A DNA stretch of 63,606 bases, filler included, from Circinaria calcarea (lineage: Eukaryota): NCBI GenBank assembly GCA_051942165.1. It is 14 parts of 14 records of this genome, joined end to end, with 100 filler letters (N's around TTAATTAATTAA, not from the genome) between each part and the next. Parts side by side here need not be neighbours in the genome. Positions count along the whole stretch, not along the records: positions 45,555 to 49,995 come from JAVECS010002327.1; 13 more parts are not named here. One strand, written 5' to 3'. The position numbers and the translations under genes are program-made. The notes beneath the pieces are model-generated. The model had not been told where the DNA came from and did no database searches. It saw only the letters and a program-made list of their open reading frames with translations. This document shows, one piece after another, positions 4,564 through 53,340 of the stretch (position 1 is its first letter; each line of letters begins with the position of its first letter).

Positions 4564-7287
4564 TAGCTTTCGAGCGAAAATGCCACTCTTTTGGAGGGCC
4601 ATCTGGATAGCGTCGATTCGCTTTTCGCATCCGGAAAGCGTGATATTACGTGGACTGTTGATACATCCGACAGTTACAAGATCGCCGAAAGATTGTGATT
4701 GATCGAGATATAATTTAATCTCAATATCAGACAAGCCAACAGCTAACATGGCACCAGCTTTTCGCGGAGGTTCTTTTAGAGAAGTAGTCACCACTCCACG
4801 GTAATAGGCTATTTGCCAAGCTGATTCACGAGACAGAGCACCAACACAATAAGCAGCAGCAATTTCCCCAGACGAATGCCCAATCACTGTTGCCGGATAA
4901 ACCCCCCAGCTTGTTAGAAGTTCGATTAGGGCGATTTGGAGGGCGGTACATATCGGTTGGCTATAGGTAGGGTCGCTGAGGTTCGAAAAGGTTTTAGACG
5001 CCAGAATTTCATCTAAATTCGATTAGTGAAGAATCGTTGCCACTATTGGAAAGACATACTAGTCATGTTCCATGTGCAGCCCAAACGCCGTAAGAAGAAA
5101 TCTGCTGCTTGAAGACTTTGTCTAAAGACTGGGAAGTCAAGAAGCTCTCGGCCCATGGCAGGCCATTGTGCACCTTGGCCAGTGAAGATGAAGCTTAGCC
5201 GGGGTGTGTTGGCGATACGAGTCGGCTTTGACAGATTATTCACTAGAGTCGATAAAACCCCCCCACTGACTGAGCTGGACAAAGCGAAGGACCGCCATAG
5301 CATGTGACTACGTTTTTCAGAGAGAGTAAAAGCAAGGTCGTCGAGAAAGTACTCTTCATCCGGTGCAAAAATATTATATGCAAGGTATTTCTGGTAGCTG
5401 GAGGCTATCCGCGTTAAACCACTCTCCTCGGAAGAAGACCACACAAGAAGCCTAGACCGCAGCTGAGGTCCTGGATTAGCTTCTAGGACAGGAAACTCGT
5501 CTATTGCAACTTTTGAACCGATGGATGTTGTTGGGGATTGAAAAGACGTGGGCGGAGCCTTTTCGGAACAATGCTTTCCATGGAGATTTCTGAGCCGTAG
5601 ATAGTTGTAAGCATCATCTAACACTGCATGTGCATTGGCTCCTCCAAAGCCGAATGAGCTTACAGAGGCCCTTCGTAGGCCTGCCGTAGGCCAAGGAGTG
5701 GGTTCAAGGGGGAACTAGTAGCCGTGTTAGTTAGCACATCATTAGATATGGCATACCCGATCTTACTTTGATATTCCAGTCTTCCAACGGGATCTTCTCG
5801 TTTGGACGCTCAAATAGTGCATTCGGGGGGATGACAGCCTTCTCTAAGACAAGGACAGTCTTGATCAAACCCGCTAAGCCGCTTGCCCCTTCCAAGTGGC
5901 CGATATTACTCTTCAGAGCACCGACATAGAGTGGATGTTTATTTTGTCCAAATGCTGCATTGATTGCGCTTGCCTCAACAAAATCCCCTAGCGGTGTGCC
6001 CGTGCCATGAGCTTCGAAGAACCTGGTTTCGCTGAGATCCAAGCCACCATTTTGATAAGTTTGGCGGATCATATCTTCTTGAGCCTTACTACTGGGCTGC
6101 GTAATACCCGGTGTACGTCCATCTTGATTGGCACCAGTAGCTCGAATAACAGCACGGATAGTATCACCGTTCTTCAAAGCTAGGGAAAGGGGCTTCACAA
6201 CAACCATGCCAAACCCTTCTCCGCGAGAATAACCGTTGGCGCGGTGATCGAAGCTGTATGATTTTCCATCCGGAGAAAGGAAGTTCAAATCCGTCATCGA
6301 TGTGAAGACATCCGGGTTAAAAAACAGGTTACAACCCCCGACCAGCCCCTGCCACATAATCAGTAAACGAGGGGACGCAGCCATCGTGATATAGAGCCGA
6401 GAGTTATCACCTACCATGGTAGCTTCTCCATTATGAATGCTTTGACAGGCGAGATGGAGCGCATTCAGGCTGCTCGAACATGCAGTATCGAGGGATATAC
6501 TTGGACCGGTTAGATTGTAGAACCAACTAAGTCGATTTGCCAGCATAGCTGCTCCATTCCCGGTTGTTTTATATTTCGCGTGCATCTCAGGATCCCTCGA
6601 CAGCATTATTTCGTAATCGTGCATAAAGCAGCCTATATGCACAGACGTTCTGGTGCCGCTTGCTCGCTCGATGGAAATACCAGCTGTGGATCAGCTGTAT
6701 CAGTTTCTGGACGAGCTGCCATTATCCAATTAAAGGGGCTTACCATTCTCGAGAGCTTCATACGCAATCTCCAGGAGCCATCTTTGCTGCGGATCCACAC
6801 ATTCCGCCTCTTCGGGCGTCATAGAGAAGAATGGCGCATCAAAGCCCGCAATATCTTCCTTGATGAAATGGGCCCCTTTAACATTGAGCTAGTATTCTTA
6901 GTCAGTATTCAACGTCGTGGATCTTATATGAGGCGGAAGATAGTATCATACCACACCTGTCTCATGCTCGCCTTCGCGATAAAATGCGTCAATGTTAAAA
7001 CGGTCAGACGGAACATCAGTCATAGCAGATCGCTTTTCCATAAGCATTTGCCAGAACGATTGTGGAGACGTGGCTTCCTGAGGAAATCTCAGAGCCAATC
7101 CAACTACCGCAATGGGCTCAAGCTTGTCCGGTTCGACAACATGGCTGAAAGTCTGTGTAAGCTCAGCGTGACCATTCATATAACCGTTAGTGTATCCTTC
7201 CATTTCTCCATTGGCCTTGTCATTGAGACAACGACCAGCGGGGACAGTCATTCGCGTGTTAGGAATGCTATTGTGATAATCTCGCAT
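4564..7287 (-). CDS. Iterative type I polyketide synthase, highly reducing type; KS and AT domains only, 3'-truncated
   Basis: [16 protein letters not shown] start of KS; DTACSSS, EAHGTGT and [14 protein letters not shown] motifs; AT motifs [10 protein letters not shown] and [11 protein letters not shown]; several GT-AG introns; no N-terminal SAT domain. Confidence 0.95.
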
Positions 7288-40753: not shown

Positions 40754-41006
40754 TCTATCTTCTTGAGGCAAAGATATGATCTGGCTCTGATGGGTAAAGA
40801 AACTCCTTGATGTAAGGAGGCTGATGGTAAGGGAAGATCTTGAAGGACCAAGAGTTAGAAGAGAGATTCGAGATGCAGGACGAGAGAAGATGATGAAGTA
40901 GAGTGTNNNNNNNNNNNNNNNNNNNNNNNNNNNNNNNNNNNNNNNNNNNNTTAATTAATTAANNNNNNNNNNNNNNNNNNNNNNNNNNNNNNNNNNNNNN
41001 NNNNNN

Positions 41007-42631
41007 TTCGTCGGCCTAGGCATTTATAGGCTGTATTTAAGCCCGATTGCAAATTTCCCAGGACCTAAGCTGGCAGCCGCGACATATCTATATGAGATTT
41101 ACTACGACGTGATAAAGAGGGGCAAATACACATTCAAGATTAGAGACTTGCATGCTATATATGGTCAGTCTCGATCACCTTCTATCAGCGTAGGAGTTGG
41201 AAAAGGATTGCTAACCTCAAAGACTTCAGGACCTATTATTCGTATTAGTCCTACCGAGCTGCACATTAATGATCCCGACTACTATGACAGCCTCTATAAT
41301 CGAGAAGGCAAGTGGGAGAAGAACCCGTTCTATGTGAATTCGTTTGGGAACACTGTCTCAGGATTCGGCACGGTTAATCACGATCTCCATCGCTTGCGGC
41401 GAGCAGCCATCAATCCGTTCTTCTCCAAGCAGAAAGTCGCGCAATTGCAACCAGTCATACAACGGCTGGCCGATAAGCTCTGCAGGAAGTTGGAAAGGAT
41501 TAGAGAGACCGACGAGGTTGTGCCAATAGAGTGCGCCTTTGATGCTTTTACAATGGACGTCATCACGGAGTACTCCCTTGACACGAACTTCGGCTACCTC
41601 GATCATCCTGGATGGAGTAGCGACTTCCGCGAGTTAGAGCGAGGGTTCGGAGAGATGGGCTATCTACAGAAACTTTTTCCACCGTTGCTTGATATTATGA
41701 ACAGCTTACCTAACTGGCTGGTCCTTTTATTGAACCCGAAGTTCAAATTGTTACTAGACTTCTTCAGAGACTGCAATGCAATCGCCAAGAAAATGTTGAC
41801 CGAGACGGATAACAAGAAGTATCAGGAGAAGGAGCACCCGACCGTCTTCTACGAGATCATTCACTCTGACTTACCGCCAACGGAAAAAACGCCGAAACGT
41901 CTAGAGGGAGAAGCGGCAGCCATACTCGGTGCTGGAGCCGTTACTACTGCGTGGACGCTCACTGTAGCCATGTACCATCTCACAGTGCAGCCGCAGAAGC
42001 TGGAACGACTACAAGGCGAGATCAGATCGATCATGCGGGATCCGCACCAGCCAGCTAATCTACAACAGCTTGAACAGCTCCCATATTTGACGTCTGTAAT
42101 CATGGAAAGTCTTCGGCTCAGTAACGGCGTTTCTACTCGGCTCGCCCGTGTTGCGCCGGACCGCAGCATCTACTTCCGAGATTGGGAGATTCCGAAGGGT
42201 ACGCCCGTAGGCATGACGTCTACACTTATTCACCAGAATCCCGACATCTTCCCGCAGCCTCTGGATTTCATTCCCGAGCGTTGGCTCGATCTGCAAGACA
42301 GAAAGCGGATGGAACGGTATCTAGTACCGTTTTCCAAAGGCACCAGGCAGTGTGCTGGTATCAAGTAAGTTCGGCACGCATCTCTTTAACTATGGCACCC
42401 TATGACAAGATTGAACCGCCTCACTGTTCCAATTCCCTATAACTAGAAGTCACGAACTAACGAGAATAAAGTCTCGCCTGGGCGGAACTTTATATAATGA
42501 TGGCTTCGATCTGTACCAGAGTCAACCTGGAATTATACGAGACAACGAGGGATGATGTGGACATCTATAGTGATATGCTTATTGCTGAGCCGAAGAGATA
42601 TGTAAACGGTGTCAGATTTCGGGTCAAATAA
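41007..42631 (+). CDS. Cytochrome P450 (CYP58/trichodiene-oxygenase-like), 5'-truncated
   Basis: FPGPKLAAAT, GPIIRISP, AGAVTT I-helix, ESLR, PERW, heme motif FSKGTRQCAG; introns 41164-41229 and 42365-42471. Confidence 0.95.
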
Positions 42632-45554: not shown

Positions 45555-47290
45555 GCCCCTTCCCCGCCCCGCCCTCCTTCCTTTCCACCGCCTAAGCCTT
45601 GGCGACAGACATAGCACATGGAGTAGCCGCAGACACACATCATTTTGTTGCAGCCGCTGTCCTTGACGAAGCCGAGGCCGCAGCGAGGACAGGTACGCTT
45701 GAGGGCGGCGGTGCGGGCGGCCTCGACAGTAGTGCGGAGGGAGAGGTGGGCGGATTCGTGGCAGATGTGAGGGTCACGCCAGGGCTTTTGGCAGAGGAGG
45801 CAACTGGTTGCGAGGCAGGAGGGAGAGCGACATTGGAAGCGCGGGGAGAGGTGGGTGGTGCGGGTTAGAGTTCGGAGGGAGTTAGAAAAGAGGGTTTGGA
45901 GGGTTTGGAGGGTTGGGAGGGGAAGGACAAGAGTGAGGATGGTGTAGCAGAGGAGGAGAGGGAAGAAGTTGAAGGCAAGGAAGAGGAGTAACAGGGTTTG
46001 AAGGGGGTGAGATGTGTTGAGGCGATAGCGAAGGGTGGAAGGGGGAAGGTAGAGGTCGTCGAATTCGGCGTAGGGGCAGAAAGGGCAGCGAATTAGTGGG
46101 GCTTGGGACTTGAGGATGGCCTCGTCTGCGAGGCGAGAAGAAAGCTTCTGCCATGTTTGAGGGCCGCCTTTGGTACCGGCGATAGCGCGGTGAGCGAGTG
46201 AGTGCGGTATACAGCCTCTGCAGGGAGTCGAGGATGTGGGTGCGAGGCAAGCCATTTGGCCGCGGGTATGATCAATGTTGAGACCCCAGGATTGTCCATA
46301 GAGGGCTTCCGATGCAGCATGCTGGATGCATGTGAAGCAAACTGTGTGGGCTCCGGCAGTACAGGTAGCCATACGTTCGAAGGTAGTGCTGGAGAAGCAG
46401 CATTCGCACTCATGGAGAGCGTCGGCTTCCTCAGCTTCCTGCTCATTGATAGTAACAGCAACCTCTAAGTCTTGAGCCTCAATATCTTGCTTTCTCTGAT
46501 CGAGAATGGGCTTCAAGACGGTGTTATATAACTCCATATCAAGCTCTCCGTTTCCAGACTCCTTCAAAGTCGGCGCAATCAATAAACTCCGATCCCGTGG
46601 GCCATTCCACACAAGCATGAAGTGGTCCCTCGGATATGGCGGTCCGGACTTCTTCCATTTCGACAAGATCGTACCAAGGCTGATTCTCCAGCTCTTTGCC
46701 GCGAGGCCCAATAGAACTAGTCTTGAAGAGGTATATGAGTGATTTTGCTCCGCCAGTACACCATCGACTGTGCTCTTGCTCAGATTCTTGAATTCCTGGC
46801 ACAGCATAGACCGCACGGCTTGTTTGTAGCTCTCTGTCCTGAATTGCTCTTCCACCGGCAAGATGCCAGTACCCGAACTGTCAGCCCTCGCATCTGACGG
46901 CTCCTCCACCTCGTAAATCTCCTTTGGTGTATTAGGCTCAGTTCCCTTGGAAGGTATACGCCATCTGTCTTTCACCCATTTGGCCTTGTGTTTGAGTAGC
47001 TGTTCCGCAACGATTTGTAATCGACTCTCCCCACTAAAGGTAGTGAGCATCTCACGGAAGACTTCAGGACAGACATCGGGGAAGATGGCAGCCAGAGCAG
47101 CCAATGATTCGTTGAGATCGGTGAGGTCTGGCTGGATTGGTTTTGTAGCCGTAGCATCTCTGGGCAGCACTGTGGCTTGAGAAAGAGATGTTACTGATTT
47201 TGTCGATGATGAGCGGCGGAACAAACGGCGGCGAACTTGGGGTGACCTTGACGGATCTGATGTAGTAGGACGGAAGACTGAGAAGACCAT
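45555..47290 (-). CDS. RBR (RING-IBR-RING) E3 ubiquitin ligase, RNF216/TRIAD3-like, with CUE-like N-terminal motif; 3'-truncated
   Basis: LAAIFPDV CUE-like; RING1 ECECCF..C...H.VC..C; IBR CPFC...C..P.C...SC..C...H.C; RING2 CPRC...FVKDSGCNKMMCVCGYSMCYVC. Confidence 0.9.
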
Positions 47291-47419
47291 CGCAGATGAT
47301 GGTTCTAAGGGAGGACTACATGATGTAGATGTTGGGTCTTGATCCCAGCTTCCGCTCAGTAGTATGATTGTCAGATGAAGTAAGTTTGAATTCTCTGTGG
47401 TGGTTTTTGTTGAATGGGT

Positions 47420-47425
47420 TATATA
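47420..47425 (+). promoter_or_regulatory. Candidate upstream TATA element of the tRNA gene
   Basis: TATATA about 30 bp upstream of the tRNA 5' end at 47453. Confidence 0.45.
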
Positions 47426-47452
47426 TGTCTTTAAGATAATTCGCTTATTATT

Positions 47453-47664
47453 GGCCGCGTGGTTTGTACAATTCAGAATCGAGTTTTCAAGTTATTCCTA
47501 CTGACAGTTCGATTAGGTCTAGTGGTATGATTGTCGCTTCGGGTTTATTGGCCTGAGTATCGCAGATGCTCTTGTATGTGACAGGCCCCGGGTTCAAATA
47601 AGTCTCCCTATCATGTCACAATCTATACTCTCCGCTAATTGTTGATTAAATCCCGGCGCGGCCC
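47453..47664 (+). tRNA. tRNA-Pro-CGG: tRNA-Pro(CGG) split by three introns: 47462-47516 (spliceosomal-like GT-AG), 47544-47576 (canonical 37/38) and 47598-47649 (spliceosomal-like AT-AA)
   Basis: Joined exons give the 72-nt sequence GGCCGCG TG GTCTAGTGGTATGAT T GTCGC TTCGGGT GTGAC AGGCC CCGGG TTCAAAT CCCGG CGCGGCC C. It has a 7/7 acceptor stem, a 5-bp anticodon stem (one G-U) and a 5/5 T stem, and closely resembles eukaryotic tRNA-Pro. Confidence 0.9.
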
Positions 47665-47676
47665 AATATAAAATGA

Positions 47677-47682
47677 TTTTTT
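47677..47682 (+). terminator. RNA polymerase III terminator (T6)
   Basis: TTTTTT 12 nt after the tRNA discriminator base. Confidence 0.7.
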
Positions 47683-49072
47683 GGCTTCTTGAAGGATCAA
47701 AAGTCTGTTATTTATTGTCCCATCATTTCAGGGCATCTTGAACCCCGCAAGGGATTCCCCGCAATAGGAAACAACCATTGTATCTTAATTCCATACATGA
47801 GTATGGTTATTTTATGATAAATCAAGCTTGGAGGAGACTCGTCTGTAACTATATTCCTTAAACTACAGTTGCACTTCTTGGACTGGCCTGATGATAACGA
47901 TTCCCGTGACCGTTTCTCCCTCTCCCCATATCCGTGTAAAGGCGCCAATAATATTACACGAGTACTCTTAAAGTCTTATACGACCTATGGCACTCGGGGA
48001 GAGCTAGTGCATGAAACCATCGCACTTTTCTACAGTGTCCAAGAAAATAAAGACGTCCTTACTCATCCACCAGAAACCGTCTGACCAGAAAGTTTACGCT
48101 TACGAAACCCAACTTCGCCTCATTTTTCAGAGTCTACTCCTGCCACTCTCTCCACCCACTCGCCCTCTCCCTCGCCCTCTCCCTCTTCTTATCCACAGTA
48201 CCGCTTTTCCACCCTCAACGCAACTAAGCGGAATACAGTACCAACATGGCCTATGTAGTGGCCTTCACAATCCAAACGGCTAAAAGATATCGAGATAGCC
48301 GCCACGAAGCCCCTCGGCACGTTGGTTGAATTAAACCCGATAAACCGAGCCTAGCTTAGCATGGATGGAGAGGAGGCGGACAGTGAAGAGATGGCCGCGA
48401 AGTAGGATGGGAATGATGGCAGAGAAAGGGAGGTCGTTTGGGTCTCAAAGCGCCACCAGTATCATTAGAATTATTTCGTATTCCGGTTATCGCACCGAAG
48501 CCAGGGTTCCTGCTAGTAGCAGTATTCCGGAGGATCTGGGCTTTAGCCTATTTGGACCTCCAAACTGGGCAGAGGTCGCTCTTCTAAATATGAAATTAGG
48601 CGGGCGTCGCTGCTATATAGTATAGGTTAGGCTGAGCGGGCGAACACAGGCATAGCAAGGATCCGAGGTTGAGAAGGAGTAATAGGGCCAAGGGCAAAAT
48701 GGCGAGGGTAGGGGTGGAGTCTAGTGGAGGGCTCGGTTAGTAGCTTGAGTGGGTGTTTACGAACGTTCAGTGAGATGGCATGTTGGAGGGTCAAGAGGGT
48801 GGTATTTCACGCTCGGATAGCTAATGTGAAACGTTACTATACTTTGAAGCTGCTAGCTACTCCAAGTTGGGCGGAGCTATTCGAGGTACTGCAACAACGA
48901 ACTTCCCTTTCTTCGATTCCAAGCATAGATGAGTATGTTGAATACTTGAGCTCGCAAAAAGTGGCTCTGGGTGCTTTGTCTCGGGTTGTTCAAAAGCGAA
49001 GCATCTAAGCTTCTTTCTCAGATCTCTCCTAGCTAAATCAACATTTGAAAATGAAACTTGGAGAAAACGAAC

Positions 49073-49616
49073 TCACTGCCCGCTTGGTGTAGTGAGAGAA
49101 AAGCGGCCTCTGGTAATCTTCATACATCTCCCAGGCCGATACTTTCCTGTGAAGAAATCAACTTCCTTTAGGTCCAACCCTAGGTTATAGAATTTCTGTC
49201 GCATGTGGTTGTTAGCCGTCAAGGTTAAGTTCGGTGTCTGCTGATTCTTACGAAACACCCGCAGTAATCGCTCTTCCCAGCCCCTCCGTCTATACATCCA
49301 CCTTTGCAGTAAGCCTGGTATTCAATCTTACTCTGGAAGCTGTCGTGGCAAAAAAAGAGGTAGTTGTCGATGGCGTTTTGATCGAGTGGTGATGCCGGAC
49401 AGTGATCGACAACCGCTCTAAGGTTACCGTACCCGTATCCTAGAACAAGAAATGGTGTATAAGTATCATATACTTTGTAGGGGGGAGAAGAGCACGAGAA
49501 CCTTTTTGGCTCACAAGCGTCTTGCCACAGTAGTAGACTCCTCCCTTGCAAGAATAACCCGCAAGCCCACCACTAGCCAAAGTGAGGGCTGGGAGCATTA
49601 AGTTTGACAGATGCAT
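49073..49616 (-). CDS. Small secreted cysteine-rich protein (effector-like)
   Basis: MHLSNLMLPALTLASGGLA signal peptide; CKGGVYYCGKTL | ...LFFC...YCKGGCIDGGAGKSDYCGC; introns 49501-49440 and probably 49251-49196 (stop at 49225 if the second is retained). Confidence 0.75.
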
Positions 49617-51387
49617 GTTGATTTGGGGCTGGCAGGCACAATATCACTCAAGCAATTGGAATCAACAAAGGGTGTTGGGAGAAGAGAAACGTCTTGAGCC
49701 AAAGAGCTTTCTTTATGCTACCGCCATCAACCTCCTCATATGGAAATAACAAGAAGCTGTTGCAAGAGATTTGATCGGCCTTGGTCGGCCGAGTTGCTCT
49801 CCAACCGGACTTGTTCGTTGTGCAAGCCGTTGGCGTCACACAGTGGTGTGTAGGAGCAAACTAGATTGTAATGACCTTTTGTCATATAGAGTCTCTTGAG
49901 AAATGCGATCAAATCAAAATACTGGTGGACAAGGCTAAAGCGCGTACAGAGGCATGCATAGTCCGTAACTGCCTTCGTATACAAAAGACCTTGGCNNNNN
50001 NNNNNNNNNNNNNNNNNNNNNNNNNNNNNNNNNNNNNNNTTAATTAATTAANNNNNNNNNNNNNNNNNNNNNNNNNNNNNNNNNNNNNNNNNNNNATTAT
50101 ATACACCCCGGACTTAGGATTTCTAATTGCTGTTTTCGGTCGGGAAAGAGAGCAGGGCCGCTTTAGAGAGAGTATTGAGGGAGTAAGGGGGAAGCACCGG
50201 AGGAGCGAGCATTGGGGGAGCAGGAGGGAGCATAAGGGGACAGTGCAGGGGCGCAGTAGCGGGAGCCTGAAATGGCTCTATCGACATCGGTTTGAGCTGC
50301 CCTCGTTATTTTCTGCTGTCTATTATGATCGCATGCCGAATGATTCAACTTTCCACTGTTTTAGTACACTGGCTGCTTTTGAAAATTCAGAATTCTATAG
50401 ATACACAATCGATTTGTCTGTATTGCTTACAACCATAATCAAAAAAATTAACGCGGCTTTAAGCAAACTCGGAACGCCCACTCCGCGAAGGATTAGACAG
50501 GGAATAATGGATGTGTACAGACTGCTAATACTATAGGTGACCGCGTCGAGCAACTTTGAAAACAAATTTATAATAACCCTCTATCCTTAATGCCTGTAAG
50601 TAGCACTATCTCTGTGGCTTTATTTACACACAGGCCCTCCCAATATTGGTAGCGGGGCAGCCGCAGACGCGGACTGGGGTAGTACAAGTGGCACTCATTG
50701 ACATTGCACGTTCTAGTACAGGCCTAAAAGAAAATGAGAAATTGGGCTGTGGTTGGTTTTTTTGGGGATAAGCTTACCCTTCAGAAAGGAGGTGCATTAC
50801 AGGGAGGGCGCTACGTCTTCAATCGGCTACACGATATAACCGGAATGTATGTATGATAAAGTGTTACTGAAATACTATGGAAATGCTGTGAGATCTTGCT
50901 TCTGTGTTATGTGTAGTGTGTGTGAGATGTGTGTGAAAGAATACTCGGGGGATCCCTGAGATATGGAAGGAAAAAGGCGTTTAATTAACATTATTTCCCC
51001 GCTATCTCCTCCACGCGTTCCAATTATAAAATTCGCTAATTTTCGGCCATTTTAGCGAAGGCGTTTTTCACCCGCTCCCGCATTATATCCGCTCCCGTAA
51101 TAATTTTTATTACGTAAATAACTATTGATTTTTCCTTCCCGTCGCGTCAGCATAATTGAGTATATATTGCCGCTGAAAATAATTGGCTGGTATTACTGCG
51201 AGTGGGTATATTAATTGGCATTAATTGGTGCGCTTCGCATTAAACGTTATATAAAGGCGTTCAATATTAGCCAAGGAAACTAATGATTCAATGTCGACTT
51301 TATTCTATGCCTGGCTTTGTTTATATAAGTCTGCTATGGCTGCTTGTTTGCTGGGTAGGGATATATCGCGTGGTAGAACTTCGCGCC

Positions 51388-53340
51388 ATGTTCATCATAT
51401 ATTCATTCATTGTGCTTGTGCTCTTCCTGAGACTTGCAAGGGCAACAGCCTCAGTTCACGACGACACCTTCACACCACACATAATCCTCCGAGGAACAGT
51501 ACAGAGCGTATCTCAGGCGTGTATCAATCGCCTCTCTGTCCTCATCAACGGGACTTGTCCTGGTCCAGAGATCAGGCTTAGGGAAGGAAAGACAACATGG
51601 ATCCGTGTGTACAACGACATGAATGACCGCAATCTTACGATGGTACTCCTCTACTTCCCTAGCTTCAGCATGTCACGTTGATGTTGATAGCAGTTCAAAT
51701 AGCACTGGCATGGTCTCGCCCAAGCTGCGTCCCCATTTTCTGATGGCACACCGCAAGCAAGCCAGTGGCCTATTGGACCCCTTCATTTCTTTGACTATGA
51801 AATTCACCCTCAGGCTGGGGATGCTGGGACGTATTTCTACCACTCCCACGTAGGATTTCAGGCCGTGTCTGCAGCAGGGCCGTTGATTGTCGAGGATGCG
51901 CATAGGGGTCCATATACCTACAAAGACGAGCGGACTTTCTTCCTTTCTGATCTTTTTAATAAAACGGACAGCCAAATCCAAAAGGGTCTCGAAAGTGACC
52001 CGTTTGTATGGAGTGGCGAAACCAGTACCGTCCTTGTAAACGGCCTTGGCATCACCGTGAACGGAACGAAAACAGGCCCATCGTGCTCGCTCTCTATTAC
52101 TAACGTCGAGCCGGATACCGTCTACCGTTTCCGTTTTATCGGAGCAACGGCACTTTCCCTCGTGTCTCTCGCTTTCGAAGGTCATCCGGAACTGAAGGTA
52201 ATTGAAGCAGATGGCCGGTACACGAAACCGTATTCGACCTCCTATTTGCAGATCGGAAGTGGCCAGAGATATAGTGTACTCTTCAAGACGAAATCCCTTG
52301 CCGAGGTCCGAACAGACCAGACTGGTGGCCGCTCAGCCTACTACCTGCAATTAGAGACGCTGGAACGACCGACTCTGACAAGGGCATATGCTTTGCTAGC
52401 TTACCCCAACCAACGCAAGCAGGGAAATACAACTGTTGCAATCACCACTACCATTCCCGACCCAAAGCCTCTCACATTACCCAATATAACCACAGGCTTC
52501 CTCGACTACCAATTACGACCCCTAAACCCCAATGAGTTCCCACCCCTCTCAGAAGTAACCCGCCGCGTAACAATCACAGTCCAGCAAATCGTCAACGGCA
52601 CCATCACCTGGGCCCAAAACGGTCTCCCCTGGTTCGAATCCTACCCCAAAGTCCCATACCTAGTCTCCCTGTACGAGGACCTCTACACCGCCGACTCCCC
52701 TCATTCGCCTTCCTACACCGACGCCATTGCGAACGGCGGCATGGATAACACCACGCGCACCTTCCCAGCACAGATCGGCGAGGTTCTAGAAATCGTCATC
52801 CAAAACTCTGGCGCCACGAACGGTGGGCTGGACGTCCATCCGTTCCATGCGCACGGCATGCATTTCTGGGATCTCGGCTCCGGAAACGGGACCTACGACC
52901 TCGCGGCCAACGAAGCGAAATTGGTAGGCACGCAGCCTGTGGTGCGCGATACGACAATGCTATACCGCTACGGCACGAAGACGACACCGGGGCTGAATGC
53001 AGGATGGCGCGCTTGGAGACTACGAGCCACGCAGGCGGGCGTGTGGATGATACACTGCCACACGCTCCAGCACATGATTATGGGTAAGAAAAATCCCTCC
53101 TCTCCTCTTCTTCCTTTTGTCGATATACAGATAAGAAAAGCACCACGTAGAAATATGCATGGAGCTGATCTGGCGGGATGTACGGCAGGTATGCAAACGG
53201 TATGGGTATTCGGAAACGAGGAAGAAATCCGCAAGATCCCGTATCCGGATATCGGCGGTTATCTGACTTACGGAGGGAGCGCGTATGGGAATGAGAGTTG
53301 GGCGCCGGTTGTGAATCATTACTTTGATGAGACAGGGTGA
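51388..53340 (+). CDS. Secreted multicopper oxidase (ascorbate-oxidase/laccase-like, AA1)
   Basis: Signal peptide; copper motifs HWHG, YFYHSH, HPFHAHG and HCHTLQHMIMG|M; introns 51643-51702 and 53084-53188. Confidence 0.95.

Follow-up and report, generated by a model that had tools for sequence, protein, structure and literature searches.

A candidate tRNA-Pro(CGG) gene in four pieces, with introns of apparently spliceosomal type, in a lichen-type ascomycete

Structure of the split locus

The window, by which we mean the whole 63.6-kb stretch of Circinaria calcarea DNA that was analysed, contains at positions 47453-47664 four tRNA pieces of 9, 27, 21 and 15 nt that are separated by inserts of 55, 33 and 52 nt (Table 1). 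When the four exons were joined, ARAGORN called a 72-nt tRNA-Pro(CGG) with all four stems paired, the sole non-Watson-Crick pair being one G-U in the anticodon stem. Exon 1 pairs perfectly with 47657-47663 in exon 4, the conserved tRNA positions are present in the joined exons, and the joined sequence aligns with the tRNA-Pro of three loci from metagenome contigs that are described below (L006, L010 and L013). The genomic form of the same DNA gave no such call. ARAGORN found 0 tRNA genes in the whole window and likewise in a 321-nt genomic piece, and Rfam missed the gene at the gathering threshold; at E<=10 over 46500-48500 it gave no tRNA match, just three weak, unrelated ones. A preliminary description, made by a model from the sequence, had proposed a four-piece tRNA-Pro(CGG) with a 72-nt cloverleaf and intact stems that standard tRNA finders would probably miss; the call on the joined exons and the blank results of ARAGORN and Rfam on the genomic form agree with it on both points. 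The locus is intergenic and lies ~160 nt upstream of an RBR-type zinc-finger ORF on the opposite strand, whose first ATG is near 47293. We read it as a genuine split tRNA-Pro(CGG) gene, nuclear, of a lichen-type ascomycete.

The middle insert is of a familiar kind. Intron 2 lies at the canonical 37/38 position, and its CCTGAG (47552-47557) can, by our reading of the sequence, pair over 6 bp with nt 32-37 (TTCGGG). With introns 1 and 3 removed, ARAGORN accepts a 33-nt intron at this place, with the anticodon misread (tRNA-Thr cgt). Position and pairing are those of the ordinary tRNA intron that had been described here at first, and among the three inserts it is intron 2 only that combines the two marks of an endonuclease-type (TSEN) intron, that is the 37/38 position and anticodon-intron pairing.

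Elsewhere in the window we noted ketosynthase-like (5731-6690, minus strand), cytochrome P450-like (40959-42368, plus strand) and multicopper oxidase (51388-53337, plus strand) ORFs, the first and last of which also read as polyketide synthase- and laccase-like. These genes may serve secondary metabolism and are unconnected with the tRNA finding. The laccase-like ORF is 100% identical to a protein ascribed to a MAG of the lichen fungus Circinaria calcarea, and its next best named matches are other lichen-forming ascomycetes. Between 4464 and 59171 the window is also marked by 26 runs of 44 N bases, which come in pairs about every 4.55 kb and cut several ORFs.

Table 1. Features of the window locus, and intron arrangement of the split tRNA-Pro genes in metagenome contigs. 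Fractions such as 9/10 give the tRNA positions between which an intron lies.
Feature	Position	Strand	Description
TATA-like element TATATATG	47420..47427	+	33 nt upstream of the mature 5' end
Exon 1	47453..47461	+	nt 1-9: 5' acceptor strand plus T8 and G9
Intron 1	47462..47516	+	55 nt, at 9/10; GTTTGT ... TACTGAC ... TTAG; U2-type spliceosomal-like
Exon 2	47517..47543	+	nt 10-37: D arm, 5' anticodon stem, anticodon CGG, G37
Intron 2	47544..47576	+	33 nt, canonical 37/38; anticodon pairing
Exon 3	47577..47597	+	nt 38-58: 3' anticodon stem, variable loop, 5' T stem, start of T loop
Intron 3	47598..47649	+	52 nt, T loop, 58/59 in the AT..AA register; ATAAGT ... GCTAAT ... TTAA
Exon 4	47650..47664	+	nt 59-73: remainder of T loop, 3' T stem, 3' acceptor strand, discriminator C
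T6 run, Pol III terminator-like	47677..47682	+	12 nt past the discriminator
L006 and L010 (AGG)			53-nt GT..TACTAAC..CAG at 9/10; 21-nt 37/38 intron with the same anticodon pairing as intron 2; 53/54-nt GTAAGT..CTGAC..CAG at 54/55
L013 (TGG)			58-nt GTAAGA..GCTAAC..CAG at 9/10; 17-nt 37/38 intron with the same anticodon pairing; 61-nt GTGAGT..CTAAT..CAG at 60/61
L002 (AGG)			gene cut by contig end; 57-nt GTGAGT..CTAAC..CAG at 9/10; GTAAGT..TACTAAC..CAG at 30/31

Related split genes in metagenome contigs

We searched metagenome contigs for relatives of the window gene with a pattern made of the first 16 bases of exon 2 with AG directly before them. In real tRNAs an A at position 8 is almost never found, and for this reason few genes other than split ones combine AG with the start of exon 2. 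Of the 13 loci that matched, five are split tRNA-Pro(AGG/TGG) genes with 4 distinct sequences (L002, L004=L006, L010 and L013; Table 1). Each of the four shares with the window gene an intron of the position and type of intron 1, and their 9/10 introns all read GT..CTRAC..YAG; since AG was a search condition, only the GT, the branch and the length of these 9/10 introns count as independent, while the additional introns at 30/31, 54/55 and 60/61 were unselected. In silico removal of two GT-AG introns left a tRNA-Pro with a 37/38 intron in L004, L006, L010 and L013, as called by ARAGORN.

The remaining eight matches were set aside. In L001 the tRNA has A at position 8 but is not split; around L003, L007 and L011 there is no tRNA context; in L005 a 3' part is present, and nothing upstream of it makes a convincing exon 1; L008=L012 carries a transposon-like insert, to which we return below; and in L009, a tRNA cluster, the insert is not GT-AG. 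The same pattern produced one chance match each in genome contigs and viral contigs (L014, a bacterial coding-like sequence, and L015, whose contig equals that of L007 in length and whose range overlaps it). The L009 cluster deserves a description in its own right. At ~1430-1700 it contains a tRNA-Pro(TGG)-like gene with a 63-nt non-GT-AG insert at 9/10 that has two hairpins and a T5 run, and with a 37/38 intron too; ARAGORN finds tRNA-Gly, tRNA-Arg (with an intron) and tRNA-Val in the same cluster. This gene seems to be a split tRNA of a separate kind, belonging to some other organism.

Conservation of the split genes could be followed in L006 (identical to L004) and L010, which are orthologues from different samples. 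Their exons are identical at 72/72 positions and their 37/38 introns at 21/21, compared with 45 of 54 aligned columns for intron 1, 37 of 57 for intron 3, and 67-87% identity in the flanks. In both spliceosomal-type introns the middle has diverged, while donor, acceptor and the branch together with the tract that follows it are retained. The comparison of orthologous loci that had been put forward as a check on the window gene therefore came out, in this metagenome pair and not at the window locus itself, with unchanged exons and diverged intron interiors. Across the window gene, L006 and L013, the acceptor stem, which is formed by exons 1 and 4 from DNA segments ~200 nt apart, has both-sided changes at 5 of its 7 pairs, and covariation is seen also in the T stem, whose strands are separated by the third intron. 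Because of the L006/L010 conservation and the covariation of acceptor and T stems, we consider exon 1 to be truly part of these tRNAs, and the split genes are, on this evidence, under purifying selection as split genes.

Closer to the window gene itself, a contig of a related fungus from a biocrust metagenome (run X1) spans the whole tRNA locus (46288-47694) at ~92% identity. The sole listed indel within the gene is a T inserted behind 47483, beside the T4 run of intron 1, and none of the 40 listed substitutions, of 334, falls inside the gene; two extra T are found just before the T6 run (behind 47676). Taken together, the X1 contigs matching 46288-47694 and 48196-49846 cover the RBR-type gene and the tRNA locus at ~85-92% identity, with a gap in coverage from ~47700 to 48195.

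The nature of introns 1 and 3

Intron 1 has both a GT start and an AG end, and the branch A (47504) of its TACTGAC motif (47499-47505) precedes the end by 12 nt. Its junction is ambiguous, the flanking GGT allowing 4 registers. We compared it with mRNA introns of the window, which are heuristic and unannotated, having been inferred by joining long ORFs, and which form a noisy set (29 of 46 clusters are without a branch-type candidate). Among the 17 listed candidates 10 end in YAG; these measure 47-74 nt and have an ACTRAY-like branch at 8-17 nt before the end. Branch placement and length of this order are found in introns 1 (55 nt) and 3 (52 nt). Intron 1 further matches the inferred mRNA introns in its acceptor, and its donor GTTTGT is absent from theirs, so that the earlier statement that its donor, branch, acceptor and size are those of the mRNA introns of the window holds for the last three features and fails for the donor. 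As a separate observation on the mRNA introns, the alignment of a protein to 51388-53337 has 20 extra columns, as one gap of ~60 nt would produce.

How often such signals come together by chance was estimated from the window. GT, a placed branch motif and AG occurred jointly in just 98 of 400,000 random 50-62-mers, whereas the full set of spliceosomal signals is carried by 8 of the 9 non-37/38 introns that are obtained when intron 3 of the window is excluded. All nine (two each in L002, L006, L010 and L013, and intron 1 of the window) are GT-AG. The idea that removal of intron-like segments would bring further split tRNAs to light found no support within the window: ARAGORN made 0 tRNA calls on 50,500 window constructs from which one or two GT-AG candidates had been removed in silico. 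This result, beside the count of random segments, is a second argument against a chance origin of the split gene. We regard it as very likely, from the signals and their recurrence in relatives, that the gene family and its 9/10 intron are genuine and that this intron is spliceosomal in kind.

An alternative is that introns 1 and 3 are ectopic tRNA introns that are cut by the tRNA endonuclease through bulge-helix-bulge-like motifs. Such introns are known at non-canonical positions, the D-arm region and the T loop included (PMC3728597, PMC4090602). If they were present here, some register of each intron should place two 3-nt bulges around a 4-bp helix. We sought this geometry, which had been named beforehand as speaking against the spliceosomal reading, in every register of both introns, and none fits. 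Of the 4 central pairs, intron 1 forms 0-2, depending on which of its 4 registers is taken. For intron 3, with 5 registers, the number is 1-3; the best register has 2 outer pairs and no inner helix, and in none do flanking helices occur on both sides. Conservation among the relatives, moreover, falls on the motifs of donor, branch and acceptor, and no helix is kept. Excision of introns 1 and 3 by the endonuclease is thus extremely improbable.

The inserts might also be small transposon or introner-like insertions with target-site duplications (GGT and AAAT) that have broken the gene. Direct repeats of 3 and 4 nt do flank the two inserts, and the metagenome contigs provide a real case of this sort: in L008=L012 a tRNA-Pro-like gene, ~225 nt upstream of the pattern match, is broken after nt 17 by a ~210-nt insert with inverted-repeat-like ends that is flanked by an 8-nt direct repeat. 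That locus reads as a transposon-type disruption, in contrast to the spliceosomal-type introns. In the window gene, the GGT repeat is itself the product expected of a GT-AG intron inserted at G|GT. Within the 63.6-kb window and the collected loci neither intron 1 nor intron 3 has a second copy, BLAST matches there being <=17 nt, and the two introns resemble each other no more than chance allows, 161 of 1000 shuffles scoring as high. The exons, finally, are unchanged in orthologues. Insertions of this type are very unlikely to account for the inserts.

Intron 3 departs from the pattern of intron 1. Its junction is ambiguous as well, the flanking AAAT giving 5 registers. As there is no AG between 47603 and 47692, none of the 5 is a GT-AG register, and the sole splice-like one is ATAAGT...TTAA, with A for G at both termini. 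The branch motif GCTAAT (47634-47639) puts the branch A at 47638, 11 nt from the end. Apart from the A for G at each terminus, we therefore read the architecture of intron 3 as spliceosomal-like. The preliminary description had taken the outer inserts to be mRNA-type introns; this agrees with the spliceosomal signals of intron 1, and it overlooked that intron 3 begins with AT and ends with AA. Other modes of excision were considered for intron 3 and rejected. As a candidate U12-type intron it was judged by its start ATAAGTCT and its branch region CGCTAAT, which do not fit the extended and highly conserved consensus of U12 donors and branches; the U12 donor is unlike the ATAAGT start, and ascomycetes are not known to have a minor spliceosome. 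From sequence only, group I excision was dismissed for want of a terminal G after a U-ending exon, and IRE1-type excision for want of 7-nt stem-loops at the junctions.

Given AT..AA ends, the window copy is either spliced at non-canonical termini or has lost its function recently. In the second case it would be a pseudogene of a once spliceosome-dependent tRNA-Pro, in which the terminal G-to-A changes block removal of intron 3 and CCG codons are read by another proline tRNA. The absence of a GT-AG register in intron 3, set against GT-AG in all the other non-37/38 introns seen, fits this explanation, and some yeasts do without the CGG isoacceptor, on which account the window gene may be dispensable. 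The state of the remaining sequence argues the other way. All four exons are intact, the stems are paired and the conserved tRNA positions are present, and intron 3 is of typical length, retains TAAGT as the core of its donor and has its CTAAT branch 11 nt before the end; random decay would rarely strike just two terminal G and spare all else. In the second splicing step the two terminal nucleotides of an intron interact with each other, and paired terminal changes can for this reason be compensatory. We consider a pseudogene rather unlikely. Since exons and other intron signals are intact and the two terminal G are the sole departures from the canonical set, we lean slightly towards a window copy that still yields tRNA.

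Proposed maturation and comparison with known systems

Signals around the split genes fit transcription by Pol III that starts just upstream of exon 1. The element TATATATG of the window gene may position TFIIIB so that exon 1 gets transcribed. TATA-like runs are seen ~45-57 nt upstream in L006, L010 and L013, while L002 has merely an AT-rich stretch. By our reading of the sequence, intron 1 stands between exon 1 and the A box, and intron 3 interrupts the B box behind its ninth base; type 2 promoters of Pol III do not usually have 55 nt between exon 1 and the A box. Downstream, the T6 run that had been described as a terminator lies 12 nt past the discriminator, and T5-T7 runs lie within 25 nt of all four genes (window, L006, L010 and L013). 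None of the 12 introns of these genes has a T run longer than 4, the longest in intron 1 being exactly 4.

From these signals a maturation pathway can be proposed. Pol III would start shortly upstream of exon 1, at a site possibly set by the TATA-like element, and stop at the T6 run, giving a precursor of ~240 nt. The spliceosome would then take out introns 1 and 3, by which the D and T arms would be restored. The tRNA endonuclease and ligase measure from the mature tRNA body, and they would therefore remove intron 2 only after the spliceosome step. RNase P, RNase Z and CCA addition would complete the tRNA. Maturation of the split proline tRNAs thus probably needs the mRNA-splicing machine. 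That the pre-tRNA requires both spliceosome and tRNA endonuclease, as was suggested at the outset, is in keeping with the signals of intron 1 and with the 37/38 position of intron 2; the AT..AA ends of intron 3 speak against it for that intron. The reading as a whole, a tRNA-Pro family with a U2-type intron at 9/10, a 37/38 intron and a spliceosomal-type intron in or next to the T loop, we hold to be likely.

A wider proposal is possible, and we advance it tentatively, as something short of probable. Lichen-type ascomycetes may have shifted tRNA maturation partly to the spliceosome, with whole isoacceptor families (all three proline anticodons, by way of their 9/10 introns) needing splicing of a Pol III transcript before the endonuclease acts, and with the U2-type intron of the window copy working through a compensating A...A for G...G. 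Textbooks keep spliceosomal and tRNA introns apart. If these genes are expressed as proposed, one tRNA would need two unrelated splicing machineries in a fixed order, and the spliceosome would act routinely on Pol III pre-tRNAs. The tRNA gene counts for such fungi would then be too low, because ARAGORN and Rfam/Infernal miss split genes. The AT..AA intron would offer a natural test of the cooperation between first and last intron nucleotides. If the wider proposal is true, such introns could also tie the supply of tRNA to the capacity of the spliceosome, an effect already proposed for the spliceosomal introns of lichen rDNA (PMC8527467).

Searches of full-text literature available without subscription found no description of spliceosomal introns in tRNA genes. 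A 2025 article still treats the types of nuclear intron as unrelated to one another and assigns the spliceosomal ones to Pol II transcripts (PMC12530127), and the genes named in a review of such introns (PMC5855946) are U6, U2, U5, U1 and rRNA genes, with no tRNA gene among them. Among known systems, the tRNA genes of Cyanidioschyzon merolae and Archaea resemble the window gene in having several introns per gene at non-canonical positions and in being missed by gene finders (PMC3728597, PMC4090602). Their introns are, in the account given there, defined by bulge-helix-bulge motifs and cut by the endonuclease, whereas here no such motif fits and spliceosomal signals are conserved. Intron 3 shares its terminal dinucleotides with the AT-AA introns of PMC1557818, where Table 2 tabulates these termini only among U12-type introns, as 8 of 66 non-canonical ones. 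Those introns are from animals and plants; intron 3, by contrast, has a U2-like ATAAGT start and a CTAAT branch.

Closer parallels come from fungi. The rDNA of lichen-forming ascomycetes contains ectopic spliceosomal introns, 57 bp long in the cited example (Bhattacharya et al. 2000, cited in PMC8527467), and yeast spliceosomes removed one lichen rDNA intron from Pol I transcripts (PMC8527467). A lichen-fungus host and short spliceosomal introns in a gene outside Pol II transcription are common to that system and ours. The rDNA case concerns Pol I rRNA and the present one a Pol III tRNA, and PMC8527467 makes no mention of tRNA. The U6 snRNA genes of S. pombe and other fungi are Pol III genes with an mRNA-type intron that the spliceosome removes (Tani and Ohshima 1989, 1991, cited in PMC5855946). 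As in U6, a short GT..branch..AG intron would here lie in a small, highly structured Pol III gene that ends at a T run, again in fungi. U6 sits at the catalytic centre of the spliceosome and has for that reason an obvious route to intron gain by reverse splicing; a tRNA, in contrast, has no link to that centre. Unlike U6, too, the window gene appears to combine two such introns with an endonuclease-type intron, which would bring two splicing systems to bear on one 72-nt RNA.
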